Source of the DNA: Verrucomicrobiota bacterium
GTDB taxonomy: Bacteria > Verrucomicrobiota > Verrucomicrobiia > Limisphaerales > JADLHS01
Assembly (NCBI GenBank): GCA_035327385.1
Contig: DAOLDN010000001.1
Span: 1-43,985, forward strand
Direction: 5' to 3'
Length of the DNA: 43,985 bases
In this document: piece after piece, positions 4,305 to 42,230 of the stretch
How positions within the stretch are numbered: the first letter of the stretch is position 1
How the letters are laid out: every line of letters begins with the position of its first letter
Position numbers and translations under genes: made by a program
Notes under the pieces: model-generated
Database searches by the model: none
Seen by the model: only the letters and a program-made list of their open reading frames with translations
What the model was told of the DNA's origin: nothing

Positions 4305-4489
4305 ATTTTGACATTGAAGGCAAAGTCGTGTCTTTTACCCGCGTTAAAAGATGAACAACGTGTTCAACAAAATGCAGAAGCTGGTCGCCGTTTATGGTCG
4401 CACGACCATTTGGCAGCGTTCCTGCCTGCATTTGGCAATCGCGGTTGCGAGACAGGAGAGGTGAAGATACGACCAGATTTCTCAAAAAA

Positions 4490-4520
4490 CCCGCGATTGC
4501 CAGTCAATCGCGGGTTTTTT
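4490..4520 (+). terminator. rho-independent terminator (possibly bidirectional)
   Basis: Perfect 10-bp stem CCCGCGATTG / CAATCGCGGG with a 5-nt loop, followed by T6. An A6 run lies upstream. Confidence 0.85.
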
Positions 4521-4570
4521 GTTGAATAACCGCTCCCGACGAGTGTCGGAAGCTCAAAAGAAAGAGAAAA

Positions 4571-4894
4571 ATGAACTTGGAATACAGACGAGTGCCGACT
4601 CGATTCGGCCCTGAGACGCGGTTCGAGGTCAGGCCGTTCCGCGCGGTCCAGGAAACGGAATTGGAACGGCTCAAAAACCGGCTCTTGCAGCAAAGACTCG
4701 GAACGACAACCGCGCCTGAACTCAACGCGCGATTGCGTCGCGCGGCCAACGAAGCCGCCGCGCTGGCTTGGATCACGCCGTTTCCGTTGCTGATGTTTCC
4801 GGCGTTGTTCGAGGAAATCGCGCAAACTGCTCGCGTTCAAGCGGCACGCCAGTTCCGCATCCGCGAGCGCAGCCGGGAGTTGCTCGCCGCATGA
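4571..4894 (+). CDS. hypothetical protein (107 aa)
   Basis: ORF preceded by a purine-rich AAAGAAAGAGAAAA. It shares an identical 17-mer (4784-4800, encoding PLLMFP) with a short ORF at 27625-27738, suggesting a small multi-copy family. Confidence 0.45.
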   Translation: MNLEYRRVPTRFGPETRFEVRPFRAVQETELERLKNRLLQQRLGTTTAPELNARLRRAANEAAALAWITPFPLLMFPALFEEIAQTARVQAARQFRIRERSRELLAA

Positions 4895-5259
4895 AAACAC
4901 CAGCCTTTGAAGTGGGGATTGGGCGCGCGGGGAGTCGTTGTCGCAGTCGCAAGGCCATGTTCTGCGATTCCGACAACGGCTCCTCGTCGCGCCGTTTTGG
5001 TTGCGACCGGCACGGATTGATCTGAACGAAGGGCGCAAACGCGACCCGGATTGTGCGCGAGCGCAGACCGGTTCGCGCCGCCCTCGTTCAGATGACAATG
5101 GGTTGCCTCCCTTCGCCGCTAAACCTGCCAATCGCACCGCAAACATTACGCCAATCCTTTGCTTTACCCGACTTTGTGAAATAAATCACGAAACCTGCTT
5201 GCCCGGCTGCGGCACGCTGTTTAACCTAGAGCAGCGTCAAAACCTGACGCACGATTCCC

Positions 5260-5787
5260 ATGAGTCAGACCACGGAATTCGGCTATGATTCGCGAATTGA
5301 GGGCGATGTCATCCACACCACGGTGGATGCGGCCATCAATTGGTTTCGCAAGAATTCCATCTGGCCGATGCCGATGGGTCTGGCGTGCTGCGCCATTGAA
5401 TTGATGGCCACGGGGGCAAGTCGCTTCGATATTTCCCGGTTCGGCATGGAGGTCATGCGGTTTTCCCCTCGCCAATCGGACGTGATGATCGTGGCGGGCA
5501 CGGTGACTTACAAAATGGCCATGTCGGTGAAACGCATTTACGACCAGATGGCCGAGCCGAAATGGGTCATCGCCATGGGCGCGTGCGCTTCGACGGGCGG
5601 CATGTATCGCAGTTACGCGGTTTTGCAGGGCGTGGACAACATTTTGCCGGTGGACGTTTATGTGGCGGGTTGTCCACCCCGGCCCGAAGCGTTGCTCGAC
5701 GCGCTGATTAAACTTCAAAACAAGGTTCAATGTGAGCCGTTGCTGGCCACTTTGAAGAAACCCGGCCCGGCGCTGGCCAAGGCTTAA
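5260..5787 (+). CDS. nuoB: NADH-quinone oxidoreductase subunit B
   Basis: Matching stretches are [25 protein letters not shown] and [12 protein letters not shown] (N2 cluster cysteines). Confidence 0.95.
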
Positions 5788-5928
5788 ATGAAATTCCAAG
5801 CTCCAAGCTCCAAGCTCCAGAGAAATTCCAAGCCCCAAGCCCCAAGAGCGTGCGGAGTTGATCGGAATTTGAATTTTGGTGCTTCTCTGGTGCTTGGATG
5901 TTGGTCCTTGGAGCTTCCCTTGCCGTGA
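5788..5928 (+). repeat. family A heptamer palindrome, copy 1 (contains a 46-codon bridging ORF)
   Basis: (CCAAGCT)3 and (CCAAGCC)2 on the left, complementary TTGG-type heptamers on the right, with an inverted core CCAGAGAA / TTCTCTGG. ATG 5788 directly follows the nuoB TAA. The TGA at 5926-5928 overlaps GTG 5925. Confidence 0.85.
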
Positions 5929-7894: not shown

Positions 7895-8044
7895 ACTTTG
7901 CCGCAAAAGAACGCAGAGAACACAAAGGAGCGCGGGTCTGTGACCCGCAGCGGCCCGCTTTGTATTTGAACGTGCTGCGGCTCACAGAGCCGCGCTCCGC
8001 AGAGGTTTTTTGTGCTCTTTGTGTTCTTTCGTGGCTAACATAAA
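7895..8044 (+). repeat. composite element: family B arms enclosing a 72-nt family F palindrome
   Basis: Left arm ACTTTGCCGCAAAAGAACGCAGAGAACACAAAGG (7895-7928). Right arm TTTTGTGCTCTTTGTGTTCTTTCGTGGCTAACA (8007-8040). The inner palindrome 7927-7998 has 25-nt arms GGAGCGCGGGTCTGTGACCCGCAGC / GCTGCGGCTCACAGAGCCGCGCTCC. A 50-codon ORF 7891-8043 bridges the nuoD stop to the nuoE start. Confidence 0.8.
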
Positions 8045-15559: not shown

Positions 15560-15694
15560 ATGAAGCTCCAAACACCAACATCCAACATCCAGGGAAGCAC
15601 CAAGCTTCAAGCTCCAATCGAGGCGCGCGGCGGTATTGGTGTTTGGGATTTGGATGTTCTCTGGAGCTTGGAGCTTGGAGCTTGGAATTTTTAG
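15560..15694 (+). repeat. family A heptamer palindrome, copy 2 (44-codon bridging ORF)
   Basis: ATG 15560 lies 2 nt after the nuoI TGA. The TAG at 15692-15694 lies 1 nt before the nuoJ ATG. Contains a (CCAACAT) array, CCAGGGAA...TTCTCTGG, and (GGAGCTT)3. Confidence 0.85.
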
Positions 15695-15695
15695 A

Positions 15696-16202
15696 ATGGC
15701 AATCCCCGACATCTTATTTTACGTCTTCGCGATTGCGACGCTCTTATTTGGGGCGCTCGTCGTCGCGAATCCGTTTAGCCGCAACCCGGTCACGAGCGCG
15801 ATGTTTCTCGTGCTCACGATTATTTCCATGGCGGGATTGTTCGTGCTGCTGCACGCCTTCTTCCTCGCGGCCGTGCAAGTGGTGGTTTATGCAGGCGCGG
15901 TCATGGTGCTGTTTCTCTTCGTCATCATGCTGCTCGATTTGAAGGAGGAAGAGCGTCGCAAAATCAAACTGACAGGGTTGGTGGCAGGCGTGATTTCTGT
16001 CGGAGCCATCGTCGGCATCTTTATCCGCTCGCTGCTGGCAACACATCCGGGCAAAGACGCAAACCCCGCCGCAATTGGCGACACCGCCGCGCTGGGCAAA
16101 TTACTGTTCACGAAATATCTGCTGCCGTTTGAAATCATCTCCGTGTTGCTGCTGGTGGCGATGGTGGGCGTGATTCTCCTAAGCAAAAAGGACCTAAAAT
16201 AG
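15696..16202 (+). CDS. nuoJ: NADH-quinone oxidoreductase subunit J
   Basis: Start trimmed to MAIPDILFYVFAIATLLFG, outside the repeat. Hydrophobic ND6-like protein. Confidence 0.9.
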   Translation: MAIPDILFYVFAIATLLFGALVVANPFSRNPVTSAMFLVLTIISMAGLFVLLHAFFLAAVQVVVYAGAVMVLFLFVIMLLDLKEEERRKIKLTGLVAGVISVGAIVGIFIRSLLATHPGKDANPAAIGDTAALGKLLFTKYLLPFEIISVLLLVAMVGVILLSKKDLK

Positions 16203-16706
16203 CCGCGAAAGAACGCAAAGAACACATAGAAAGGAGATTCAAACATGCAAACCAAGACCATCAACGACCTGTGCGACAGCGTGAGGCAGACGGCGTATGA
16301 CGTTCATGTTTATCATGGCAACGGACATTTGGAGAAAGTGTATGAGAATGCGTTGGCAAATCGGCTTCGGAAAGCGGGCTTCGACGTGAAGCAACAGCAT
16401 CCGCTAAAGGTTTATGACGAGGACAGCACGGTCATCGGCGAATACTTCGCCGACCTCTTGGTTGATGGTCGCCTGATTGTCGAATTGAAAGCAGCCAAGA
16501 CTGTCGCCGACGAGCACGTCGCGCAAACGCTTGGCTATTTGAAAGCGTCGCGGATTGAGCATGGGTTGCTGATCAACTTTGGCTCATATCGTTTCCAGAT
16601 TCGGAAGTTCGTGTTGAGCAAAGGCAAGGTGAGCGAGGAAGGTTTAGGGCGATTGGCTTGCCTTCTGCCTTTTCTCTTTGCGATCTCTGCGTTCTTTCGC
16701 GGCTAA
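16200..16706 (+). mobile_element. TIR-bounded cargo unit carrying the GxxExxY gene (family B arms)
   Basis: Perfect 16-bp inverted repeat AGCCGCGAAAGAACGC (16201-16216) / GCGTTCTTTCGCGGCT (16689-16704). The nuoJ TAG and the cargo TAA both lie inside the arms. Confidence 0.45.
16245..16706 (+). CDS. GxxExxY protein (PD-(D/E)XK nuclease superfamily)
   Basis: GHLEKVYENAL is the GxxExxY motif. ADLLVDGRLIVELKA is a D...ExK nuclease core. Strong SD AAGGAG 8 nt upstream. The C-terminal tail is encoded by the right repeat arm. Confidence 0.8.
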   Translation: MQTKTINDLCDSVRQTAYDVHVYHGNGHLEKVYENALANRLRKAGFDVKQQHPLKVYDEDSTVIGEYFADLLVDGRLIVELKAAKTVADEHVAQTLGYLKASRIEHGLLINFGSYRFQIRKFVLSKGKVSEEGLGRLACLLPFLFAISAFFRG

Positions 16707-17021: not shown

Positions 17022-17162
17022 ATGAAGCTCCAAGCACCAACATCCAACATCCAGAGAAGCACCAAGTCTCAAGCTCCAATCGGGGCGAGCGGCGATTTTG
17101 GTGTTTGGGATTTGGATGTTCTCTGGAGCTTTGAGCTTGGAGCTTGGAATTTTCCGGAATGA
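17022..17162 (+). repeat. family A heptamer palindrome, copy 3 (46-codon bridging ORF)
   Basis: ATG 17022 lies 1 nt after the nuoK TGA. The TGA at 17160-17162 overlaps the nuoL ATG 17159 (ATGA). Confidence 0.85.
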
Positions 17163-19033
17163 AACTCGAAGCGTTACCTTGGCTGATCTTGTTCCTGCCG
17201 CTGCTCGCGGCGGGCATCATCGCGCTTTTTACCCTGCGCAACAAAGCCGTCAGCGCCACGTTATCCATCGGCGCGATTGTCACCGGCTTCGTCCTCACGC
17301 TGGCGGTGATCAAGTTCGGCGGCTGGGAAGCGCGCGAACTTTCCGTCAACTGGCTCTCCATCGGTAGTCTGACGGTGGATTTCGGCCTCAAGCTCGACGC
17401 GCTCAGCCTGATGATGTTGCTCATCGTCACCGGCGTCGGCAGCGCCATTCACATTTATTCCTACGGCTACATGCACGACGACCCGGGCTTCTCGCGCTTC
17501 TTCGCGTGCCTGAGCCTGTTCACGTTCTCGATGCTCGGCATCGTGTTGTCGAACAATTTCCTCCAGATGTTCATCTTCTGGGAACTGGTCGGTGTGTCGA
17601 GCTACCTGCTCATCGGGTTTTGGTTTGAGAAGGCCAGCGCGGCGGACGCGGCGAAAAAGGCATTCATCACGAATCGGCTGGGTGATTTTGGCTTCATTCT
17701 TGGAATTCTCATGGTGTGGGCAATGTTTGGATCGCTCTCGTTTGATGGAATGAAACCCGGTCTTGCGAGTTTCATGGCTGAACACAGCGGGCCAACGCCA
17801 CTTTTCTTCTTGGCAGGTTTGCTCATTTTCTGCGGCGCAGTTGGCAAGAGTGCTCAGTTCCCCCTGCATGTTTGGTTGCCGGATGCCATGGAAGGTCCAA
17901 CCCCGGTTTCGGCTTTGATCCATGCTGCTACGATGGTGGCTGCTGGTGTGTTCATGTTGTGTCGGGTTTTCTTTTTGCTCGAACCCAGCGGTGCGCTCAC
18001 CGTCATCGCGTGGATTGGCGGCTTCACCGCGTTGCTCGCCGCGCTCATCGCCGTCCAGCAAAACGACATCAAACGCATCCTCGCCTACTCGACGCTGTCG
18101 CAACTCGGCTACATGGTCATGGCCGTCGGGTTGCATTCGCCCGAGTCAGGCATGTTCCATCTGACCACGCACGCGTTCTTCAAGGCACTGCTGTTCCTCG
18201 GCGCCGGCTCGGTAATCCACGCGATGCATCACGAGCAGGACATCTGGAAGATGGGCGCGCTCCGCAAGAAAATGCCCGTCACGTTCTGGACATTCATGGT
18301 TGGCACAATTGCGCTGGCGGGCGTCTGGCCGTTGAGCGGCTTCTTCAGCAAGGACGCCATCCTCGCCGCTGCACATGAGCATAGCATTCCACTGTTCATC
18401 CTTGGCGTGTTCGTGGCGTTGCTCACCACGTTCTACATGTTTCGACTCGTGTTCGTGGCGTTTTTCGGCGCGGCCAAATCGCACGGAGTGGATCACGCGC
18501 ACGAATCACCCGGTGTCATGATCTGGCCGCTACGAATTCTTGCCATACTGAGCATCGTCGGTGGCGTCATCGGCATCGAATCGCTGTTCGCCGGTATGTT
18601 CAAGCCTGAAGGCGAACATCCGCACGGCCTCGTCGCGCAACTGATTTATCCGTTCCAACACGCGCCTGTCGCGGCGTTCAGCGGACTCGCGGTGTTCGCC
18701 ATCGGCCTGTTTGCTGCGTGGAAACTTTACGCGAACGCGAAGGAAGACCCGTTGCCCGCAAAACTCGGCGCATTGTCCAAGGCGATGCAGAACCGCTTTT
18801 ATTTCGACGAGATTTACGAAGCTACTTTCATCCGCGCGCACGACGCCATCGCGGCAGTGGCCGACTGGATTGACCGCTGGATCGTCGAGGGCTTTTGCAT
18901 CGGCCTCGTGCGCGGCGGAACGGATTTGACGGGCCGTGCATTGCGCCTCGTCCAGACCGGCAACCTCCAGACCTACGCCTTCCTGTTCGTGCTCGGCGTG
19001 GCCGTGGTGCTGTGGTTCGTGCTCGGAAAATGA
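17159..19033 (+). CDS. nuoL: NADH-quinone oxidoreductase subunit L
   Basis: Start trimmed to MKLEALPWLILFLPLL. Matching stretches are WLPDAMEGPTPVSALIHAATMVAAG and the antiporter-like TM pattern. Confidence 0.93.
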   Translation: MKLEALPWLILFLPLLAAGIIALFTLRNKAVSATLSIGAIVTGFVLTLAVIKFGGWEARELSVNWLSIGSLTVDFGLKLDALSLMMLLIVTGVGSAIHIYSYGYMHDDPGFSRFFACLSLFTFSMLGIVLSNNFLQMFIFWELVGVSSYLLIGFWFEKASAADAAKKAFITNRLGDFGFILGILMVWAMFGSLSFDGMKPGLASFMAEHSGPTPLFFLAGLLIFCGAVGKSAQFPLHVWLPDAMEGPTPVSALIHAATMVAAGVFMLCRVFFLLEPSGALTVIAWIGGFTALLAALIAVQQNDIKRILAYSTLSQLGYMVMAVGLHSPESGMFHLTTHAFFKALLFLGAGSVIHAMHHEQDIWKMGALRKKMPVTFWTFMVGTIALAGVWPLSGFFSKDAILAAAHEHSIPLFILGVFVALLTTFYMFRLVFVAFFGAAKSHGVDHAHESPGVMIWPLRILAILSIVGGVIGIESLFAGMFKPEGEHPHGLVAQLIYPFQHAPVAAFSGLAVFAIGLFAAWKLYANAKEDPLPAKLGALSKAMQNRFYFDEIYEATFIRAHDAIAAVADWIDRWIVEGFCIGLVRGGTDLTGRALRLVQTGNLQTYAFLFVLGVAVVLWFVLGK

Positions 19034-20145
19034 TGCCTCGATTCACCAACAACAAAACTCTGACCAAAGGCCGCCCGGCCTCGGGGAAGATTGTCGCTAC
19101 ATCGTCACGACAATTGGCGAAGGCTTCACCCAAAGCATTGCTGGCAGATGTGCGTGAGTTGATTCTCGCAGCCCGTGAAGGCGTGGCTCAAGCAGTCAAC
19201 GCGAGCCTTGTGACGCTTTACTGGCAAATTGGCAAACGCATCCACAAAGACGTTCTCCAAGAGAAGCGGGCGGAGTATGGGCAGAAGATTGTCGCCGCAC
19301 TGGGGCGACAATTAGAAACTGAGTTCGGGCGAGGCTTCACAGAGAAAAATCTTTGGCGCATGGTTCAGTTCACAGAGGCTTTTCCTAATGAACAAATTGT
19401 CGCCGCACTGCGGCGACAATTGGGCTGGACTCATTTCAGGCAGTTAATTCCTATCGAAGATCCGCTCAAGCGTGACTTCTACGCAGAGATGTGCCGGATT
19501 GAGAATTGGAGCACCCGGACGCTTGCAAAAAAGATCAGTGGACTACTTTTCGAGCGCACCGCCATCTCCAAGAAAACCGACAAGCTGATCCGTCAGGAAC
19601 TCAAAACGCTTCGCGAGGAAGACAAGCTTACCCCTGACCTTGTCTTCCGCGACCCTTACGTGCTGGATTTTCTAAAGCTGAAGGACACTTACAGTGAGAG
19701 TGACATCGAAGCGGCGATCTTGCGGGAGATTGAGTCGTTCATTTTGGAGTTGGGCGCAGGCTTTTGTTTTGTGACGCGCCAGAAGCGGATGCAAATTGAC
19801 TCGCGCGATTACTACCTCGACCTACTGTTCTATCACCGCAAGTTGCGCCGCCTCGTAGCGATGGATTTGAAGCTCGACGAATTCGACGCCGCCGACAAGG
19901 GGCAGATGGAGCTTTATCTCAACTGGCTGAAGAAACACGAGCAAGGCGCGGACGAAGCGCCGCCGTTGGGCATCATCCTGTGCGCGGGCAAGCGGCAGGA
20001 GCACGTTGAACTGCTGGCGATGGATCGCGACGGCATCCACGTCGCCAGCTACGTGACGAAGGAGATTCCGAAGAAACAGCTCGAACGAAAGCTTCACGAA
20101 GCCGTGCGTCTGGCGCGGGCGCGGTTGGAAAGGGGGAAACTATGA
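19030..20145 (+). CDS. YhcG/DUF1016-family PD-(D/E)XK nuclease
   Basis: The ATG overlaps the nuoL TGA. N-terminal stretches LVTLYWQIGKRI...GRGFTEKNLWRMVQF. C-terminal nuclease core YYLDLLFYHRKLRRLVAMDLKLDEF. Confidence 0.85.
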   Translation: MMPRFTNNKTLTKGRPASGKIVATSSRQLAKASPKALLADVRELILAAREGVAQAVNASLVTLYWQIGKRIHKDVLQEKRAEYGQKIVAALGRQLETEFGRGFTEKNLWRMVQFTEAFPNEQIVAALRRQLGWTHFRQLIPIEDPLKRDFYAEMCRIENWSTRTLAKKISGLLFERTAISKKTDKLIRQELKTLREEDKLTPDLVFRDPYVLDFLKLKDTYSESDIEAAILREIESFILELGAGFCFVTRQKRMQIDSRDYYLDLLFYHRKLRRLVAMDLKLDEFDAADKGQMELYLNWLKKHEQGADEAPPLGIILCAGKRQEHVELLAMDRDGIHVASYVTKEIPKKQLERKLHEAVRLARARLERGKL

Positions 20146-20714
20146 AAGAACTTTTCATAGGAATTGAGCCAAAGAACACAAAAGAATGTGTTAGCAGAAT
20201 TCTTGCGACAACAGCGGGATTTATCGCCCTAGCGTATCTGTTCAACGCGCCAATTCGCGTCGATAAATACTTCCTCATATTTTACGCAATGGCGTTTCTT
20301 CCTTGGATTGGATATTTCATCAAGCGAGCGGGAAAAGATAACATTGAATTTTCAGACCCCACATCAGAAAAAGTCTCCAAAGAAACCCTCGTTCAGATTC
20401 CAAAGGTACAGGAGGCCGTCAAATTTGAATCCCTCTCGCCGGAGGCAAAGCGAATCCTAAAGACGCTCGATTACTACCAGCGCCAAGGGTTTAAGAAACT
20501 CGACGCGGAAGGGCGTTGGGCGTTCACGATACCGTTTGGACATCCAAATCACGCCCAGTTCATGGGCGGAATTCTTGAGCTTCACAGTTCGGGGTTAATT
20601 TCAATGGATCACGGGACTGGGCGGTTTGGTCTTTCAGACGACGGGGTGAAACTGCTTTCGGAGAATCAGAACGATATTGGCAAAATCTCTGGCAGGTATG
20701 TTTTCGACAACTGA
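20142..20714 (+). CDS. hypothetical membrane protein (2 predicted TM helices + soluble C-terminal domain)
   Basis: ATGA overlap with yhcG. Predicted helices ILATTAGFIALAYLFNAPI and YFLIFYAMAFLPWIGYFI. Low GC. Confidence 0.6.
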   Translation: MKELFIGIEPKNTKECVSRILATTAGFIALAYLFNAPIRVDKYFLIFYAMAFLPWIGYFIKRAGKDNIEFSDPTSEKVSKETLVQIPKVQEAVKFESLSPEAKRILKTLDYYQRQGFKKLDAEGRWAFTIPFGHPNHAQFMGGILELHSSGLISMDHGTGRFGLSDDGVKLLSENQNDIGKISGRYVFDN

Positions 20715-20739
20715 GCAACGATTTTAACCTGACGCGTCT

Positions 20740-22233
20740 ATGAAAACGAAGATCGCAAATAAAATGCTATTGGGGCTCTGTTTGGCGATTGCAGTTGGTG
20801 GTTGCGAAAAGCAAAAGAAACCCGAAGAGGATTATAAGACTGGCGAAGCATTTGTAGTCCTCAAATCGGGCGAGGTTCTCTATATGGCCGACATGGAAAT
20901 TGTCTGCTTGAAACAGAGCTTCAAGACCAATTTTAACGCATTAAAAGCTGACTATGAGCGTCACGCTCCTACTCGAAAAGCTGTGACCGAAGACCCTGGT
21001 GTAAAAGCGAAACTGAAAGAAATGGACGATGGCATCTCGGAGCTAAGTGCCAAAATCGCTCGCGCTCCGGATGAGGGTAAAGGCATAGCTGACCAGTTAA
21101 TGCGCGGGATCGAATCTGAGCGAAATGCGATTGCGGCGGAAATCGCCAAAAACAAAGACCTCTTGAATGAATACAAACAAATTGTCGATCCGTTGGATAA
21201 GCGGATCGAAGAGCTGAGAATTGAAGCAGCGAAACTCGCACAAGGGAAAAGAGATCTAATCAGCCAGACGATTCAGAATATTAATTCCTATATTGTTGAT
21301 TCAAAGCTTACCGTCTCGATATTAGAACTGAAAAATGATGAGTCTCTTTTCGAAACAACCGAAGAATTCACACAACACTATCCATCGATCGGCAGCCCGG
21401 AGCGTCGGCCTCATCCACTCAATTCTTATCTAGTAGGAGTTCGCAATCCGTTTTTGGTAGAAAAAAGGAGAAATCGGATGGATTACGGGTCGGCTTCAGA
21501 TTGGACATCTGATTGGATATTTCTGAAGTACGTCCCGGCTGAACTTGAGGGAACACCGATGGATGCAACAATCAAAGCGGCCTACAAGAAATCGCTGAGT
21601 CTTCAATCGCGTATAGAGGGCGCAAATAAAAAGCTTTGGGCGGAAACAGCGCGAGAACATGAACAGCTATTGCCTTGGCAAAATCGTCACGGCATTTCGA
21701 TCTCGGATGGCCGTGGAATGATTGCACAAGAAGCCCGACAGAAAATAAATCTGGCGCAGCTCGACGATCAAATTAACGATTTCAGAACAGATGCCCCCAA
21801 AGCGCGGGCGCTCGTTCAAGCTGAAATTCAAAAAAAGATCGCTGAACTTAATGAATCTTTGACTTCATTAAAAAAGCGCCGTGAGGTTTTCGAGCGGGAG
21901 GCTGCCAAAAAAGCCAGCGACGCTGTTGAAGAGTCTTTCGAATCAGTTAAGAACGAACTCAAGTCGGAATATCGGCAGAAGTTTTACGAGTTGCTAAATA
22001 AGAACGTCCTCACTGCTGTGCGAACTGGAAGCAAGGGAGACTTCATTGTTTCGGGCGAAGCCGCCTACCTCTTTGCAGAAACGCACCGGGACAATAGCGA
22101 AAAGCTTGCGTGGTTAGTTCGCGTTGATCCGAAGTCTCCCAAGGTTAAAATGAGTTTGTCAAACGCTGCCTCCGCTGGCGGCAGGGGAGACTTTGATGAC
22201 TTCTGGATGCTTCGCTGGAATCTGGCTGAGTGA
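20740..22233 (+). CDS. hypothetical coiled-coil lipoprotein
   Basis: MLLGLCLAIAVGGC is a signal peptide with a lipobox. Long charged helical stretches (e.g. AIAAEIAKNKDLLNEYKQIVDPLDKRIEELRIEAAKLAQ). No NTPase motif seen. Low GC. Confidence 0.65.
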   Translation: MKTKIANKMLLGLCLAIAVGGCEKQKKPEEDYKTGEAFVVLKSGEVLYMADMEIVCLKQSFKTNFNALKADYERHAPTRKAVTEDPGVKAKLKEMDDGISELSAKIARAPDEGKGIADQLMRGIESERNAIAAEIAKNKDLLNEYKQIVDPLDKRIEELRIEAAKLAQGKRDLISQTIQNINSYIVDSKLTVSILELKNDESLFETTEEFTQHYPSIGSPERRPHPLNSYLVGVRNPFLVEKRRNRMDYGSASDWTSDWIFLKYVPAELEGTPMDATIKAAYKKSLSLQSRIEGANKKLWAETAREHEQLLPWQNRHGISISDGRGMIAQEARQKINLAQLDDQINDFRTDAPKARALVQAEIQKKIAELNESLTSLKKRREVFEREAAKKASDAVEESFESVKNELKSEYRQKFYELLNKNVLTAVRTGSKGDFIVSGEAAYLFAETHRDNSEKLAWLVRVDPKSPKVKMSLSNAASAGGRGDFDDFWMLRWNLAE

Positions 22234-22254
22234 ATCACCACCTGAATTAAAATT

Positions 22255-22791
22255 ATGCCAACACCAACTGATTTGGAATGCTTTGTTCGGTGGTTTGCAG
22301 TGCCCGTTGAGACGCTGAAAACCTTGCCTAACGGCGACGCTGCATTTGTGGCTCTGTCGGTCGGTTTTCTTTTGTGTGAACGGTATTACAGGATTACTAC
22401 CACCAGCCAAGAGGAAGTGCCCGTAGACAAATCTAGGAACAGAGCCGCAGAAGAGATGAACGTCAACAAGAAGTTCTTCAGCATTTTCTGGTCAACCTAT
22501 CGAAATGGGCTGATGCACCAAGGAACACCTAAAATATATGAGTGCGACGGCATCAAATACAAGTGGATGATTGATGCGGAGTTTGAAGCCTACCCAACTT
22601 ACTATGACAGGGACGGGTTCAGATTCATTTGTCTCAACCCTTGGAAGTTTACCGACTTCATGATTTCGAAGTTTTTGAATAATCCGCAGCATTTGAATGG
22701 TTCTTTGATTTACGAGTTGGGTCACATCTTTGATGCAAAACTCGTTGGAAAACCAATACAAGTGCCGCTGAACGCAGCTTATCCCGATTAA
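22255..22791 (+). CDS. hypothetical protein with HEPN-like Rx4H motif
   Basis: 178 aa. FWSTYRNGLMHQG (R codon 22501-22503, H codon 22516-22518) is an R-N-x3-H motif. Low GC. The stop lies 9 nt before the nuoM ATG. Confidence 0.55.
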   Translation: MPTPTDLECFVRWFAVPVETLKTLPNGDAAFVALSVGFLLCERYYRITTTSQEEVPVDKSRNRAAEEMNVNKKFFSIFWSTYRNGLMHQGTPKIYECDGIKYKWMIDAEFEAYPTYYDRDGFRFICLNPWKFTDFMISKFLNNPQHLNGSLIYELGHIFDAKLVGKPIQVPLNAAYPD

Positions 22792-22800
22792 CTCAATTTG

Positions 22801-24342
22801 ATGTCCACACTGACCTTAATTTTTGCTCTGCCGTTGCTCGCCGCAATCGCACTGGCGTTCGTGCCCCGCAACTTTGCCGTCATCATGCGCGCCGTGGCGG
22901 TGGGCGTGACCGGCGTCACGATGCTGCTGGCTGTGCTGATGTTCTGGCAGTTCAATTGTGTCGAGCCTGATGCCAACGGATACCGGTTTGTCAGCACCAT
23001 TCCCGGACTCGGTGCGGAATCGCTCGGCATCGCCTGCAAGCTGGGCGTGGACGGCTTGAACGTGGGGCTGGTGTTGATGGGCGCGATCGTGGCGTTCGCG
23101 GCGGCGTGCTGCTCGTTCGAGATCAAATCGCGCGAGAAGGAATTTTACATCCTTCTGCTCACGATGACCGGCGGCATCCTCGGCGCGTTCATGTCGCTCG
23201 ACCTGTTTTTCTTCTACTTCTTCCATGAACTCGCGCTCGTGCCGACGTTCATCATGATCGGCGTGTGGGGTCGCGGCGAACGCAAGAATTTCGCGACGTT
23301 CCAGATCACGATTTATCTGAGCATCGGCGCGTTGCTCGCGCTCATCGGCCTCATTGCACTCTATCTGCAATTGCCCGCCGACGTCCGCACGTTCGACATT
23401 CCGACACTGACGAATTATTTCGCCGAAAACACGATGGCGCACAGCGCGCAGATGTTCATCTTCCCGCTGCTGCTGCTGGGCTTCGGAATCCTTGTTTCGC
23501 TCTGGCCATTCCATTCGTGGGCCGCGCTGGGTTACGGCTCTGCTCCAAGCGCAACAGCAATGCTCCATGCCGGCGTCTTGAAAAAGTTCGGGCTTTACGG
23601 TTTGATCCGCATCGCGATTCCGTTTTGTCCGGAGGTGGCGCAATCCCACCTCCAACTCATCGCATGGCTCGCGCTTGGCAACGTGCTTTACGTCGGCTGG
23701 GTGGCGATGCGGCAGAAGAATCTGAACCTGCTCATCGGTAATTCCAGCGTGGCGCACATGGGCATGATCTTCCTGGGCATCGCCAGCCTGAACCTCATCG
23801 GCGTGACCGGCGCGGTGGTCATCATGGTGGCGCACGGTTTCCTCGCGGCGCTGACGTTCGGCCTCAGCGGTTACATCTACAATCAGACCGGCACGCTGGA
23901 AATGAGCGAGCTGGGCGGGCTGGCGAAGAAACTGCGGTTCATCGGCGTGGCGTTTGTGATGGCGGCGATGGCGGGCTGTGGCTTGCCGGGTTTCCTGAAT
24001 TTTGTGGGCGAAGTCAAGGTGTTCTTTGGCGCGTGGCAGGTGCCAGCGTTGCGCACAGTCACGGTGCTGGCAGTGTGGGGCGCGTTGTTGATTGGCGCGG
24101 TTTACATGTTGCGCGCGGTGCGGGCCGTGATGCACGCGGACATGCCAGAAAAATGGGCGGCGGTTTCCGATGCGAACCTGTGGCGCAAGCTGCCGTATGC
24201 GGTGTTGATCGCGAGCCTGTTGGTGTTCGGATGCTTTCCCAAGCTGCTCACAGAAAAGGTCACGCCGGTGACGGAGCAGATTGTAAGCATGGCGACGGTG
24301 AAGCAAGAAGCGCCTGTTGTGGTGGCGGAGATTCAGAAATGA
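22801..24342 (+). CDS. nuoM: NADH-quinone oxidoreductase subunit M
   Basis: ATG 22801 (the track starts at TTG 22798). ND4-like TM pattern, WPFHSWA...HAGVLKKFGLYG. Confidence 0.93.
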   Translation: MSTLTLIFALPLLAAIALAFVPRNFAVIMRAVAVGVTGVTMLLAVLMFWQFNCVEPDANGYRFVSTIPGLGAESLGIACKLGVDGLNVGLVLMGAIVAFAAACCSFEIKSREKEFYILLLTMTGGILGAFMSLDLFFFYFFHELALVPTFIMIGVWGRGERKNFATFQITIYLSIGALLALIGLIALYLQLPADVRTFDIPTLTNYFAENTMAHSAQMFIFPLLLLGFGILVSLWPFHSWAALGYGSAPSATAMLHAGVLKKFGLYGLIRIAIPFCPEVAQSHLQLIAWLALGNVLYVGWVAMRQKNLNLLIGNSSVAHMGMIFLGIASLNLIGVTGAVVIMVAHGFLAALTFGLSGYIYNQTGTLEMSELGGLAKKLRFIGVAFVMAAMAGCGLPGFLNFVGEVKVFFGAWQVPALRTVTVLAVWGALLIGAVYMLRAVRAVMHADMPEKWAAVSDANLWRKLPYAVLIASLLVFGCFPKLLTEKVTPVTEQIVSMATVKQEAPVVVAEIQK

Positions 24343-24482
24343 AAAGCACCAAGCACCAAGCACCAACATCCAGAGAAACTCCAAACCCCAAGCTTCAAGC
24401 GGGCGGCGGGCGTTTCCTGGTATTTGAAAATTGGAGCTTCTCTGGAGCTTGGAGGTTGGAATTTGGAGCTTTCAACAGATGA
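24339..24482 (+). repeat. family A heptamer palindrome, copy 4 (47-codon bridging ORF)
   Basis: The ATG at 24339 overlaps the nuoM TGA (ATGA) and the TGA at 24480-24482 overlaps the nuoN ATG 24479 (ATGA). Contains (CACCAAG) heptamers and CCAGAGAA...TTCTCTGG. Confidence 0.85.
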
Positions 24483-28780: not shown

Positions 28781-29024
28781 GAGCCGACCGTCCGCTGCGC
28801 GGCTTCAGTGGTTCAAAGCGCGAATTGAGATTCGGCGATTCTCTCCCCGTTCGAGGCGGAGAGGGAGAATCTCGGTCAGTCTCTTTGCGATCTGTGCGTT
28901 CTTTTGTGGCTGATCGTCGTCTGGAGGCGGCGCTGCTGATCATTGGAGGAACTCGCGGACGAGCCGTCCGCGCTCCTTGCAAATTTTCGTGTAGTTCGTG
29001 TGTTTCGTGGTTAGAGTTTCCCGG

Positions 29025-34151: not shown

Positions 34152-35492
34152 ATGAAGCAACAATTCAAAGTCATCGAAGGTTCAATCACGGCGCCGCAAG
34201 GCTTCCTCGCCAGCGGAGTGTTTTGCGACATCAAACGCCTGGGCACGGGCAAAGGGTCGCAGAAAGGAAAGAAACGCGACCTCGCACTCATCGTTTCCGA
34301 AGTGCCGGCGACCGTCGCGGGCATGTTCACGACCAATCAGGTCTGTGCCGCGCCTGTGAAAGTGTGTGCTGAACGCGTGAAGAAAGGCGTGGCGCAGGCG
34401 ATTGTCGTGAACTCCGGCAATGCCAACGCCTGCACCGGCCGACAGGGCATGAAGGACGCACGCGAAATGACGGCGCAGGTCGCGAAGATTTTTCACATGC
34501 CGGAACAACATGTTCTGGTCGGCAGCACAGGACGCATCGGAGTGACGATGCCGATGGACAATGTGAGATCGGGCATCCGCCACGCCGCGCAGTTACTGGG
34601 CAACGATGCCGCTCATGCCACCGAAACCGCTGAAGCCATCATGACCAGCGATTCGCGCCAGAAACAGATTGCCGTTGAATTCAAATTGGGTGGCAAAACG
34701 GTGCGCATTGGCGGCATTTGCAAGGGCGCAGGAATGATCCAACCGGGAATGTCCGCCACCGGCGCACGACCGGCTGCGTTGCCGCACGGTGGATTGCACG
34801 CGACGATGCTGGGTTTTATCACCACGGACGCCGCGATTGAGGCAAAAGCGTTGCAGGCCGCGTTGCAGGAAGCCGTGGCGAACAGTTTCAACCGCATCAC
34901 CGTGGATGGCGACATGAGCACGAACGACACGGTGCTGGTGCTGGCGAATGGGCTGGCGGGGAATGAAAACATCCAACATCCAACATCCAACATCCAACAC
35001 CGAACGTTTCAGGCTGCGCTCACGTATGTCTGTCTGGAACTGGCGAAGATGATTGTACGCGATGGCGAAGGCGTGCATCGCGTGGTGACTGTGCGCGTGA
35101 ACGGCGCAAAGACGATTCAAGATGCCGATGCCGCCGCGCGTGCGGTGGCGAACAGCGCGCTAGTAAAAACAAGCTGGCACGGCGGCGACCCGAACTGGGG
35201 GCGCATCATTGACGCCATCGGTTATTCTCCGGCAACTGTCGTGGAGGAGAAGATTGACATCGGCTATTCCGCGCCCGGCAGCCGGAAGGTTCTATGGAGC
35301 TTGAAACGCGGCCAGCCGACGAAGGCGACGTTCAAGCAACTGTGTCTCGCCGTTGCTCCCAAGGAATTCGAACTGCGCATCAACCTTAACCTCGGCAAGG
35401 CCGCCGCCGTCATGTATGCAGCAGATTTGACCGAGGAATACGTGGACTTTAACAAAGGCGACGTGACTGATCCGACGACACTGGGAGGCTGA
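34152..35492 (+). CDS. argJ: bifunctional ornithine acetyltransferase / N-acetylglutamate synthase
   Basis: Start trimmed to MKQQFKVIEGSITAPQGFLASG. Matching stretches are the autoprocessing site HATMLGFITTDA, NRITVDGDMSTNDT and IVRDGEG. Confidence 0.9.
   Translation: MKQQFKVIEGSITAPQGFLASGVFCDIKRLGTGKGSQKGKKRDLALIVSEVPATVAGMFTTNQVCAAPVKVCAERVKKGVAQAIVVNSGNANACTGRQGMKDAREMTAQVAKIFHMPEQHVLVGSTGRIGVTMPMDNVRSGIRHAAQLLGNDAAHATETAEAIMTSDSRQKQIAVEFKLGGKTVRIGGICKGAGMIQPGMSATGARPAALPHGGLHATMLGFITTDAAIEAKALQAALQEAVANSFNRITVDGDMSTNDTVLVLANGLAGNENIQHPTSNIQHRTFQAALTYVCLELAKMIVRDGEGVHRVVTVRVNGAKTIQDADAAARAVANSALVKTSWHGGDPNWGRIIDAIGYSPATVVEEKIDIGYSAPGSRKVLWSLKRGQPTKATFKQLCLAVAPKEFELRINLNLGKAAAVMYAADLTEEYVDFNKGDVTDPTTLGG
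34970..34997 (+). repeat. (CATCCAA)x4 heptamer array inside argJ
   Basis: Four perfect tandem heptamers, translated in frame as NIQHPTSNIQH. The heptamer is the same one as in the left arms of family A. Confidence 0.9.
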
Positions 35493-35627
35493 TTTGTTAG
35501 CCACGGATTCACCATGTGGAACACGGATGAGGTTCAAACTGGACATGCTTATTTGAAAGGCGCAGGCTCGACCCCATAGAACAAGACAGGCTGTAAAATT
35601 GTAACCTAGTATCTGTTCGGCAAACCG

Positions 35628-36203
35628 ATGAACCTTTTCCTGCCAAAGCCACTTAGGGAAGCTCTTGAAAAGGGAGTTGGGTTTTTTATGGGCGAGGATT
35701 GCGAATGGAAATTCGAGCAAAAGGAATCGGCAGAGTTCATAGAGAAGATTGTGGGATGTCCTGTGTACGCCTTCGCCAACAATGGGTTTGGTGATTATTT
35801 GTTCCTGAAAAAGAGGCCGGACGGGGATGGATTTGGAGAGGATGTTTTTGAATTCTTTCACGAGGGACCGGAAATCAAGCGGATTACTGAAAATTTGGAG
35901 ACGCTGCTCGGATTGAAGGATCGCCCCGCGTCGGTAGATGTCTATCCAAAAGCCATCTACGAAACAGGAGAGTTGGTCCAGGTAGGAGATCGTGTTCAGG
36001 TCAAAGTGTGGGCAGAGTTTTGGAAGGGCTGGCAGGACGGACAGGTCGATTATGTCCCCGGAATCTCCAAGAAAAAGCTCAAGCACGAATACAACGGATT
36101 GAAGTGGGTTGCGATTAGATTCCGAAACGGGGAGATTTGCCCAGTGGTAGACCCCAAAAGCGGAAAACTTAGAAAGGTCAGATTTGTTGCACGGCACAGC
36201 TAG
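35628..36203 (+). CDS. hypothetical protein, N-terminal SMI1/KNR4 (SUKH)-like
   Basis: 191 aa with lower GC. YAFANNGFGDYLFLKKRPDG resembles SUKH immunity-protein motifs. It is flanked by family B arms (35494-35530 and 36279-36316). Confidence 0.45.
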   Translation: MNLFLPKPLREALEKGVGFFMGEDCEWKFEQKESAEFIEKIVGCPVYAFANNGFGDYLFLKKRPDGDGFGEDVFEFFHEGPEIKRITENLETLLGLKDRPASVDVYPKAIYETGELVQVGDRVQVKVWAEFWKGWQDGQVDYVPGISKKKLKHEYNGLKWVAIRFRNGEICPVVDPKSGKLRKVRFVARHS

Positions 36204-36328
36204 ACTGCAACCATCGCCGCCCGATCAGCCCGCGTTCTTAATTGTTCCCCCATTGCCCGCACAGTTCGTCCGCAATCAGAAGATCTGTGTTTTATCTATG
36301 TTCGTCTGCGGCTAACTTTTGGCACAAC

Positions 36329-36451
36329 GTGCATACCCTCATTGCCAAAGCCGCGACGTTGCTGGAAGCCTTGCCTTACTTTCAGCGTTTCCGCAACCAG
36401 AAGTTCGTCGTCAAATATGGTGGCTCGTTCATGGACTCGCCCGATGCTTGA
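36329..36451 (+). pseudogene. argB: relic of an argB 5' end (40 codons)
   Basis: [40 protein letters not shown] versus the intact ArgB N-terminus [40 protein letters not shown] at 41349. By my count about 94/120 nt are identical. Confidence 0.8.
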
Positions 36452-36453
36452 CT

Positions 36454-36468
36454 TCTATTGGCAATAGA
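36454..36468 (+). promoter_or_regulatory. palindromic candidate operator upstream of parDE
   Basis: TCTATTG-G-CAATAGA is a perfect 7-bp inverted repeat immediately after a TTGACT hexamer (36448-36453), 17 nt upstream of the parD ATG. Confidence 0.4.
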
Positions 36469-36484
36469 TGGAAATTCGCCCCGC

Positions 36485-36751
36485 ATGAGCCACGCGCTGA
36501 CACCCTACTACAAGCAGATCATCCGTCGGCAGATCGCCACCGGACGCTTCAATAATGAGAGCGAGGTTATCCGTCATTCACTGCGGCTGGCTGATTCGTT
36601 GGAGCGGGCCTCAGGACCATTGGGCCGCGCTTTCGCCGGACGCGAGGAGCTTGAGGAATTACTGCTGGAAGGGCTGGCGAGTGGCGACGGCAAACGGATG
36701 ACTCCAGCCCGGAAAAAGCAAATTTACAAGCTGGCGCTGGAGGAATCGTGA
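36485..36751 (+). CDS. parD: ParD-family antitoxin
   Basis: Start trimmed to MSHALTPYYKQIIRRQIATGRFNNESEVIRHSLRL, the ribbon-helix-helix ParD pattern. Confidence 0.8.
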   Translation: MSHALTPYYKQIIRRQIATGRFNNESEVIRHSLRLADSLERASGPLGRAFAGREELEELLLEGLASGDGKRMTPARKKQIYKLALEES

Positions 36752-41348: not shown

Positions 41349-42230
41349 ATGCAAGACCTTATCGCAAAAGCCGCCACACTGCTGGAGGCGCTGCCCTACA
41401 TCCAGCGTTTCCGCACCCAGACGTTCGTCGTCAAGTATGGCGGATCGTTCATGGATTCGCCAGACCCCTCCATCCGCAACGGCGTGGCGCGCGACGTCGT
41501 GTTTCTTGAGGCTGTCGGAATCAATCCCATCGTGGTTCACGGCGGTGGCAAGGCCATCACTCGCGCCATGGAGGCCGCCGGATTGAAAGCTCAATTCATC
41601 CAAGGCCAGCGCGTCACGGACGAGGCGACCGCGCTGGTGGTGGACCGCGTGCTGTCGCGCGAGATCAATCCCGAAATCGTCAAGACCATCGAATCGTTGG
41701 GCGGCAAGGCGCGCGGGTTCAGCGGCGCGGACATCTTCAAGTGCCGGAAACTGCTGGTGGACGACAAGGAAAACCCCGGAAAGAAGATTGACGTCGGTTA
41801 CGTGGGCGAAGTCGTTGAGGTGAACACCGACCCGTTGCGCCAGTGCATCCGTCGCGGAGTGACGCCGGTCATCAGCCCGGTGGCGCTTGGCGAGGACGGA
41901 ATGATCTACAACTGCAACGCCGACGTTGGCGCCGCGCAAACGGCCATTGCCCTGAAAGCGAAACGTCTTGTGTTCATGAGCGACGTGCCGGGGTTGTTGT
42001 CCGATCCGAAGAATCCCGACTCGCTGATTCCACATCTCAAGACCGAAGCCGTGGCCGAATTGAAGGCGTTGGGCGTGATTGACAAGGGAATGATCCCCAA
42101 GGTGGACAGCGCCGTGGCCGCCATCAAGACCGGCGTGGAAAAAGTCTCCTTCGTGGACGGCCGCGTGCAACATTCCGTGCTGCTGGAGATTTTCACCGAT
42201 GAAGGTGTGGGCACGGAAGTGGTCTTGTGA
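41349..42230 (+). CDS. argB: acetylglutamate kinase
   Basis: Start trimmed to [21 protein letters not shown]. Matching stretches are VVKYGGS, VVHGGG and NCNADVGAAQTAIAL. Confidence 0.93.
   Translation: MQDLIAKAATLLEALPYIQRFRTQTFVVKYGGSFMDSPDPSIRNGVARDVVFLEAVGINPIVVHGGGKAITRAMEAAGLKAQFIQGQRVTDEATALVVDRVLSREINPEIVKTIESLGGKARGFSGADIFKCRKLLVDDKENPGKKIDVGYVGEVVEVNTDPLRQCIRRGVTPVISPVALGEDGMIYNCNADVGAAQTAIALKAKRLVFMSDVPGLLSDPKNPDSLIPHLKTEAVAELKALGVIDKGMIPKVDSAVAAIKTGVEKVSFVDGRVQHSVLLEIFTDEGVGTEVVL

Follow-up and report, generated by a model that had tools for sequence, protein, structure and literature searches.

We analysed a 43,985-nt stretch of Verrucomicrobiota DNA (contig DAOLDN010000001.1; hereafter, the window) in which four genes, here called g1 to g4, lie inside the operon for respiratory complex I, between nuoL and nuoM (Table 1). 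The four genes are co-oriented and fill exactly the space between the nuoL stop codon and the nuoM start codon, and the coordinates and overlaps given for them in a first-pass annotation were confirmed. The ATG of g1 overlaps the TGA stop of nuoL (AAATGATGCC), and the start of g2 overlaps the end of g1 by ATGA. The spacers between g2 and g3 and between g3 and g4 measure 25 and 21 nt, and the nuoM ATG at 22801 (with a TTG at 22798) follows 9 nt past the TAA of g4.

Table 1. Coordinates of the nuoL–nuoM block and of other inserts in the nuo operon of the window
Feature	Position	Strand	Basis
nuoL (complex I subunit L)	17144-19033	+	Open reading frame (ORF); NuoL 64-86% identical in 70+ related loci; TGA at 19031-19033 is the left border of the block
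g1, YhcG/DUF1016 PD-(D/E)XK nuclease gene	19030-20145	+	Pfam; PADLOC PDC-S02
g2, 190-aa near-orphan	20142-20714	+	ORF; hydropathy; three clusters only
g3, 497-aa lipoprotein	20740-22233	+	Alignment; AlphaFold2 (AF2) model; family of 14 clusters
g4, 178-aa predicted cytoplasmic protein with HEPN-like signature	22255-22791	+	Conservation; AF2 model
nuoM (complex I subunit M)	22798-24342	+	ORF; 64-92% identical in 80 metagenome loci; right border of the block
GxxExxY-type PD-(D/E)XK gene between nuoJ and nuoK	16245-16706	+	PDDEXK_3 (9e-32); TIGR04256 (1e-34)
132-nt hairpin-forming repeat, nuoI–nuoJ spacer	15560-15691		Direct-repeat family; RNA folding
Copy of the 132-nt repeat, nuoK–nuoL	17022-17153
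Copy of the 132-nt repeat, nuoM–nuoN	24341-24472
Further copy of the 132-nt repeat	5790-5917

The block differs from its surroundings in composition. The G+C content (GC) and the GC at third codon positions (GC3) are 0.58/0.76 in nuoL and 0.60/0.80 in nuoM, versus 0.46/0.51 in g2, 0.47/0.48 in g3 and 0.45/0.54 in g4, with g1 at 0.54/0.66. Intervals of 1 kb within g2 to g4 have a GC of 0.455-0.479, which is the minimum of the entire window, and the remaining window has a mean of 0.576 (standard deviation 0.023). The earlier description of genes 2 to 4 as compositionally foreign thus holds. For comparison, we collected more than 90 related nuo loci from contigs encoding homologues and from a NuoM scan of metagenomes (the labels L001-L115 denote related loci); all junction counts below cover the 71 evaluable relatives from the NuoM scan. 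The gap between nuoL and nuoM is at most 30 nt in 34 of these relatives, 31-300 nt in 26 and more than 300 nt in 11. The 3.8-kb block is foreign, non-core DNA placed precisely in the nuoL–nuoM junction.

How the block arrived at this site had been proposed from the pentamer TGATG, which stands at both ends (19031 and 22799) and was read as a 5-bp target-site duplication with an empty site of the same sequence. The two copies are indeed present, but they are uninformative, since TGATG occurs 142 times in the whole window and each end copy holds an obligatory start codon. The duplication itself was not borne out. The closest empty site (L027, NuoM 89% identical) reads TGA-TTTCG-ATG (TGATTTCGATG); at other empty sites, the sequence is TAAAATG or TAGCGTG. 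Moreover, three loci that carry g3 (L001, L024 and L114) share a left junction made of the nuoL TGA, about 19 nt and the ATG of g3, without TGATG. A Pfam scan found no transposase, integrase or other recombinase domain in the block, and a repeat search of the window found no inverted or direct repeats bracketing g1 to g4. A transposon-like insertion with target-site duplication was rejected because the empty sites differ and both flanking inverted repeats and a recombinase are missing.

The terminator scan gave 16 terminator-like sites in the region, versus 14.5 expected by chance, and none of those between nuoL and nuoM lies on the plus strand in a spacer. This lack of terminators above chance is consistent with read-through expression, and the inserts are probably transcribed from the nuo promoter in this way.

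Variable fillings of the nuo junctions

The relatives carry a different content at the same site. In L026 (NuoM 90% identical), a yhcG gene whose product is 86% identical to that of g1 is the sole filling; it is fused to nuoL by ATGATG as in the window and joined to nuoM by TAG-ATG. Three loci with a NuoM of 72-73% identity (L001-L003) have the order nuoL-g3-g4-nuoM without g1 and g2, and g3-g4 is also found in L021 and L022, where the upstream side is not resolved. In L024 and L025, g3 is accompanied by an unrelated 194-aa membrane protein, and in L114 and L115 a short-stalk g3 is accompanied by an unrelated membrane protein of 224 aa. All four genes in the order yhcG-g2-g3-g4 were seen only in the window and in its very close relatives L106-L108. 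Neither g3 nor g4 was found in any of the 71 evaluable loci of the NuoM scan, including the relatives with an 89-90% identical NuoM. Other junctions between nuoL and nuoM hold GxxExxY genes (L036, L038), unrelated ORFs (L032, L033, L037, L041 and L072, the last encoding an FGE-sulfatase-domain protein) or palindromic repeats (L028, L030, L034, L040, L045).

Such variation extends to all six nuo junctions, with fillings of up to 2.8 kb. Fillings of 0.1-2.8 kb occur from nuoH–nuoI to nuoM–nuoN in some of the loci L026-L105, for example 2772 nt between nuoK and nuoL in L047, 915 nt between nuoM and nuoN in L041 and 784 nt between nuoH and nuoI in L064. In a NuoM tree, nearly all genomes in the subclade of the window differ in their filling, and the g3-g4 carrier L001 falls within a distant clade of empty sites. 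Across the loci compared, the nuo spacers, and the nuoL–nuoM junction above all, are shown to be hypervariable sites in this Verrucomicrobiota clade (Limisphaerales-like metagenome genomes), which collect small foreign genes and hairpin repeats. A literature search for insertions inside nuo operons returned nothing relevant. The hypervariable filling of stop/start junctions in a respiratory operon is new here, as is an unannotated HEPN-like family described below.

These comparisons did not support the proposal that the block entered as one four-gene cassette: yhcG stands alone in L026, g3-g4 stands alone in L001, g3 has other partners in L024 and L114, and all four genes are together only in L106-L108. 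They show the block to be a mosaic of separate pieces and not one system. The explanation as a whole, including how the mosaic was built and what its genes would do, is fairly probable. At least two insertion histories would then be stacked in the window. In one, the YhcG/DUF1016 nuclease gene would have been joined to the nuoL stop codon; by its occurrence in L026 and its intermediate GC3 of 0.66, g1 looks like an independent insert. In the other, a low-GC module around g3 would have entered with an exchangeable downstream partner, which is g4 here and an unrelated membrane protein elsewhere. The remaining gene, g2, is found only between yhcG and g3-centred pieces, and in the closest relatives only.

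The relationships of g3 and g4 disagree with those of NuoM. Between L001 and L024, g3 is 69% identical and NuoM 77%, whereas between the window and L024 g3 is 56% identical and NuoM 88%. Between L001 and L021, g4 is 81% identical and NuoM 73%, and between the window and L001 g4 is 77% identical versus 73-74% for NuoL and NuoM. Furthermore, the GC3 of g3 and g4 is 0.42-0.55 in every host, versus 0.74-0.81 for the nuo genes. The disagreement suggests that g3 and g4 move laterally between nuo operons. Recombination in the flanking nuoL and nuoM genes, which are conserved, and not transposition, would be the likely means by which the g3-centred module passes from the nuo operon of one lineage to that of another. 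A recombination tract in nuoM was considered and rejected: only codons 2-3 (ATG TCC ACA) resemble the L001-type start, these codons also occur in L114, and this is too little for a co-transfer.

Proteins encoded by the block

By sequence comparison, g4 founds an unannotated protein family. Its close family comprises 29 clusters that are at least 50% identical to g4, and an exhaustive profile search at E<=1e-3 gave a broad family of 324 representative clusters (clustered at 50% identity) from Verrucomicrobiota, Planctomycetota, Spirochaetota and Deltaproteobacteria. Searches of viral, plasmid and phage collections with g4 yielded two weak matches of about 30% identity, and tblastn found no match in cultured phages and plasmids. 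The Rx4H motif noted in g4 by the first-pass annotation, R83-N-G-L-M-H88, is present and conserved, with R, G and H invariant in the 29 close relatives. In an alignment of 68 diverse members, E42 is found in 68, R43, R83 and H88 in 67 each and G85 in 66; R83 is followed by N, D or H in 60 members, and 38 have R or K at position 46. The conservation of these putative catalytic residues in 68 diverse sequences argues for purifying selection on an activity.

HEPN domains are defined by an Rx4-6H motif that spans the end of core helix 3 and the start of the loop after it, with N, D or H as the usual residue next to the R, and by a conserved acidic residue in helix 2, often as Ex3(K/R); inserts between helices 2 and 3 occur, and in Csx1 a beta hairpin directly follows the motif (PMC3710099). 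The sequence of g4 has this pattern with a spacing of four. The AF2 model of g4 (predicted local distance difference test, pLDDT, 83.5; predicted template modelling score 0.78) consists of helices 6-21, 27-49, 59-67 and 72-86, a four-strand sheet (95-127) and a helix at 129-142. In this predicted model, E42 (as E42xxxR46) lies in helix 27-49, which corresponds to helix 2, R83 lies at the end of helix 72-86, which corresponds to helix 3, H88 lies in the next loop, and the short helix 59-67 is an insert between helices 2 and 3. The placement of the motif, of the helix 2 acid and of the insert thus agrees with the HEPN definition. Most likely, g4 would be a divergent, metal-independent RNase of the HEPN type, in which four beta strands are inserted behind the catalytic motif.

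Several relatives of g4 are found beside restriction-type genes or in mobile elements. In L016, the g4 homologue and a YhcG gene share 10 nt, a Mrr_cat gene adjoins the relative in L009, and in L109 the homologue lies between genes for an Eco57I/N6 methylase and a BsuBI/PstI endonuclease. Genes for a relaxase, a coupling protein and an integrase accompany the relative in L018, a coupling protein gene the one in L113, and primase, AAA and IrrE genes the one in L012. An association between HEPN genes and restriction-modification systems has been described (PMC3710099). By analogy with other stand-alone HEPN proteins beside restriction-fold DNases, g4 may act as an effector in conflict or abortive infection. 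The relative in L011 follows a gene for a protein with a transmembrane segment, a coiled coil and DUF4352, and that in L009 follows a lipoprotein gene, so that in both loci the preceding gene encodes a coiled-coil protein anchored in the envelope; pairwise BLAST among the varied upstream and downstream partners of g4 relatives revealed no shared family except g3. A HEPN-MNT type II toxin-antitoxin system was rejected as an interpretation of g4, as neither g2 and g3 nor the neighbours of g4 relatives showed a nucleotidyltransferase domain. In L004, a 372-aa protein without a Pfam match (4392-5510), encoded three genes upstream of a g4 relative and near T5orf172 and DUF3800 genes, contains ...WDYRNNAVH... 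(R-N-x-x-x-H) and might represent another HEPN-like protein, also unannotated, in a variable island.

The earlier description of g3 as a lipoprotein with long coiled-coil helices between small beta parts is supported by alignment and model. Its N-terminus reads MKTKIANKMLLGLCLAIAVGG-C22 with the lipobox VGGC, and at least 90% of the family members have Cys22. An N-terminal block, GEAFVVLKSGEV.YMADM, and a C-terminal block, TGSKGDF...RDNGEK..WLV.V, are strongly conserved, and the length of the helical middle varies across the family. The AF2 model (pLDDT 77.6) shows a conserved base beta domain, to which both termini of the protein contribute a part, and an antiparallel coiled-coil stalk of about 100 residues that carries a distal beta domain. 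Scans of Pfam, NCBIfam, PADLOC and PHROG gave no usable match for g3, and IMG/VR contained no relative. Foldseek retrieved only generic coiled coils (SMC arms, alpha-pore-forming toxins and Tc toxins; E >=0.011, template modelling (TM) score <=0.18), which we set aside as uninformative, and a match to PADLOC LmuB at 7e-6 was dismissed as coiled-coil noise over the helical parts. In five of six resolved contexts, g3 is located in the nuoL–nuoM junction; L020 has a g3-like gene away from nuo, in an island of MmeI, PIN, FRG, integrase and RHS genes. From its predicted structure, g3 may be an envelope-anchored partner, perhaps a sensor or anchor.

For g2, only three clusters were found among 5.8 billion, all from close relatives and always in the order yhcG-g2-g3, and neither Pfam, NCBIfam nor PADLOC gave a match. 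Of the two transmembrane helices predicted earlier, segment 16-38 lies above the hydropathy threshold, but the aromatic-rich segment 43-60 passes only with an 18-residue window. The layout is that of a hydrophobic pair at the N-terminus followed by a soluble C-terminal part.

The assignment of g1 to the YhcG/DUF1016 PD-(D/E)XK nucleases was corroborated by full-length matches to Pfam DUF1016_N (1e-47; 161.9 bits, cut-off 32.8) and YhcG_C (5e-46; 156.9 bits, cut-off 32.5), and by the nuclease motif YYLDLLFYHRKLRRLVAMDLKL..GQMELY, which gives D ... D-L-K. Against PADLOC-DB v2, g1 matched the candidate family PDC-S02 at 7e-129. Nucleases of the YhcG and GxxExxY types are often carried by mobile or variable DNA (PMC4316617), and YhcG would here be an independent nuclease acting at the DNA level. 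Inside yhcG, a near-perfect 26-nt palindrome (ATTGTCGCCGCACTGCGGCGACAATT) occurs twice (19288-19313 and 19396-19421); the duplicated IVAAL(G/R)RQL segments in the N-terminal DUF1016 domain are encoded by these two copies, one of which is scored as a terminator-like site on the minus strand. In the 1-kb contig L108, only the last approximately 45 YhcG residues are recognisable upstream of g2 (1-166), preceded by a GGTGAGGG-type repeat, which suggests that yhcG is truncated there.

Other inserts in the nuo operon

A second nuclease gene, of the GxxExxY type, lies between nuoJ and nuoK of the window. Inverted repeats of 31 nt stand on either side (16200-16230 and 16675-16705), which places the gene in the loop of a hairpin. 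The same nuoJ-nuoK position is occupied by a GxxExxY gene in L114 and L115, and in L036 and L038 such a gene lies in the gap between nuoL and nuoM. Further copies of the 31-nt repeat arm were found at 7897-7927, 8005-8036 and 28880-28911.

Three nuo spacers of the window hold copies of a 132-nt repeat made of CCAAG-like units (Table 1), which folds at -52 to -60 kcal/mol (z -3.2 to -5.3). The relatives have other palindromic repeats in the same nuo spacers. Elsewhere in the window, the second-lowest GC patch lies at approximately 35250-36500 (GC about 0.50), and a 115-nt direct repeat is present at 36330-36444 and 41350-41464.

Competing readings and known systems

The first-pass annotation regarded the block as a parts list typical of defence systems. 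The match of g1 to PDC-S02, the HEPN-type motif of g4 and the location of g4 relatives beside restriction-type genes and mobile elements agree with this view, but g2 to g4 are without a PADLOC model, and the outcome of PADLOC-DB v2 for the block was one single-gene candidate (g1) and no multi-gene system. Our best guess at a function for the pieces of the mosaic is a role in conflict or abortive infection, with g4 as a predicted RNase effector.

Several results weigh against this interpretation. A defence or conflict role for the block genes is plausible but unproven. No PADLOC model credibly matched g2, g3 or g4, and PDC-S02, which g1 matches, is a candidate defence family only. The g4 relatives in L013 and L014 are solitary among housekeeping genes. 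Foldseek found no match to the g4 model in the PDB at E<=0.001 (best E=0.26, none HEPN), although this is a weak test for small inserted helical bundles, and in BFVD it found one unnamed protein (E=5.7e-3, TM score 0.46) and no HEPN structure. A superposition of the g4 bundle on solved HEPN structures was thus not supported, an outcome that had been named in advance as speaking against a HEPN fold. No similarity to a described HEPN family emerged at the profile level either: g4 and its 29 close and 68 broad family members had no match in Pfam, NCBIfam, PADLOC or PHROG, and profile searches of the PDB with the close and broad alignments gave chance matches only. That E42 lies close to R83 and H88 is an assumption. 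The HEPN-like character proposed for g4 is thus retained for motif and predicted topology but not for structural similarity, and we regard g4 as likely, but not established, to be a divergent HEPN RNase with a beta insert. Moreover, g3 is predicted to lie outside the cytoplasm and g4 inside, which leaves a direct partnership without an obvious physical route. As for the proposed movement, uneven evolutionary rates could partly explain the incongruence of g3 and g4 with NuoM, and an ancient presence of the genes followed by many precise losses is a possible alternative history.

A different explanation would see the fillings as selfish or neutral hitch-hikers, such as addiction modules and junk ORFs, that are kept since imprecise excision from an essential, translationally coupled operon would be lethal. 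The miscellany of unrelated orphan ORFs and repeats at the junction across genomes fits such hitch-hiking, as does the status of GxxExxY and YhcG-type nucleases as typical passengers of mobile DNA (PMC4316617), and tight stop/start fusions would hinder clean loss. However, g4 is more conserved than NuoL and NuoM between the window and L001, its putative catalytic residues are invariant across the 68 sequences, the end domains of g3 are strongly conserved, and empty sites in close relatives indicate that loss or non-gain is feasible. We consider hitch-hiking rather unlikely, and it would overlap with a toxin role if g4 were an addiction toxin.

The near-constant location of g3 could alternatively be explained if g3, with or without g4, were a lineage-specific accessory or assembly factor of complex I. 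Its position in the nuoL–nuoM junction in most resolved contexts, in lineages with a NuoM of only 73% identity, would fit this role, as would an envelope lipoprotein beside a membrane complex and an expression coupled to nuo. On the other hand, neither the closest relatives (L026, L027 and L028) nor any of the 71 evaluable loci of the NuoM scan carry g3, whose GC is low in every host and whose relationships are incongruent with NuoM; the L020 homologue lies in a restriction/PIN/integrase island away from nuo, and the g4 family is widespread in non-nuo contexts. The patchy presence of g3 and g4 makes an accessory role in complex I very unlikely.

A single four-gene defence or abortive-infection system, inserted in one event that duplicated TGATG, is most improbable: the tight, co-oriented packing, the shared order in L106-L108, the overlap of a g4 relative with a YhcG gene in the unrelated genome L016 and the terminal TGATG copies speak for it, but the separate occurrence of yhcG (L026) and g3-g4 (L001), the other partners of g3 (L024, L114), a GC3 of g1 clearly above the 0.48-0.54 of g2 to g4, the L027 empty site (TGATTTCGATG), the left junctions of g3 carriers without TGATG, the frequency of TGATG in the window and the lack of a transposase or integrase in the block all contradict it.

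The mosaic reading can be carried one step further, as a tentative proposal to which we attach a low probability. The nuo stop/start junctions would be safe-harbour sites, in which promoterless conflict genes are expressed by read-through and exchanged via the respiratory genes, and a g3-like lipoprotein together with a g4-type, beta-inserted HEPN RNase would form an undescribed system of the abortive-infection type. The transmembrane/coiled-coil/DUF4352 protein in L011 and the lipoprotein in L009, each beside a g4 relative, would then be analogous pairings in other phyla.

If the mosaic reading is correct, an essential, tightly coupled respiratory operon acts as a hypervariable landing site for accessory and conflict genes, in contrast to the usual landing sites, which are tRNA genes or gaps between operons. 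This would bear on the spread and expression of promoterless genes. The g4 family, with its approximately 324 clusters, combines a textbook HEPN signature with an unusual predicted alpha/beta scaffold and is a target for biochemistry and for defence catalogues. For annotation, the practical consequence is to avoid listing the four genes as a single system.

Among known systems, g4 resembles the stand-alone HEPN RNases linked to restriction-modification systems (PrrC/PrrI logic, ApeA-like; PMC3710099) in that R-(N/D/H)-x-x-x-H ends the third core helix and a Glu lies in helix 2, and in that it is a small, single-domain protein whose relatives adjoin YhcG, Mrr and PstI-type genes, methylases and mobile elements. 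Unlike these RNases, g4 shows no detectable sequence or Foldseek similarity to described HEPN families, has a four-strand beta sheet between the motif and the last helix, lacks an ABC ATPase, MNT or other known regulator and is paired with a coiled-coil lipoprotein, within a respiratory operon in this clade; its RNase activity is predicted only. The GxxExxY gene between its inverted repeats in a highly transcribed unit recalls the ORFs of 23S rRNA intervening sequences (S23p- and GxxExxY-type; Coxiella, PMC4990558). However, its host is an mRNA operon, its hairpin is predicted only, and the g1 to g4 block has no flanking inverted repeats. Like other YhcG/DUF1016 nucleases (PDC-S02), g1 matches both Pfam domains at full length as well as the PADLOC models, but it is joined to nuoL by a stop/start overlap inside an essential operon.

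A general concept from enterobacterial and Pseudomonas pangenomes is that of hot spots, in which defence and accessory genes accumulate between core genes that are conserved. The nuo junction resembles them in its fixed flanks, in a cargo of foreign composition that varies between close relatives and in contents rich in nucleases and orphan genes. In contrast to these hot spots, no integrase or tRNA target is found at the nuo junction, and its cargo of one to four small genes comes without a spacer, promoter or terminator of its own. Moreover, the nuo site differs in lying inside a single operon for an essential enzyme, all six junctions of which behave in this way.

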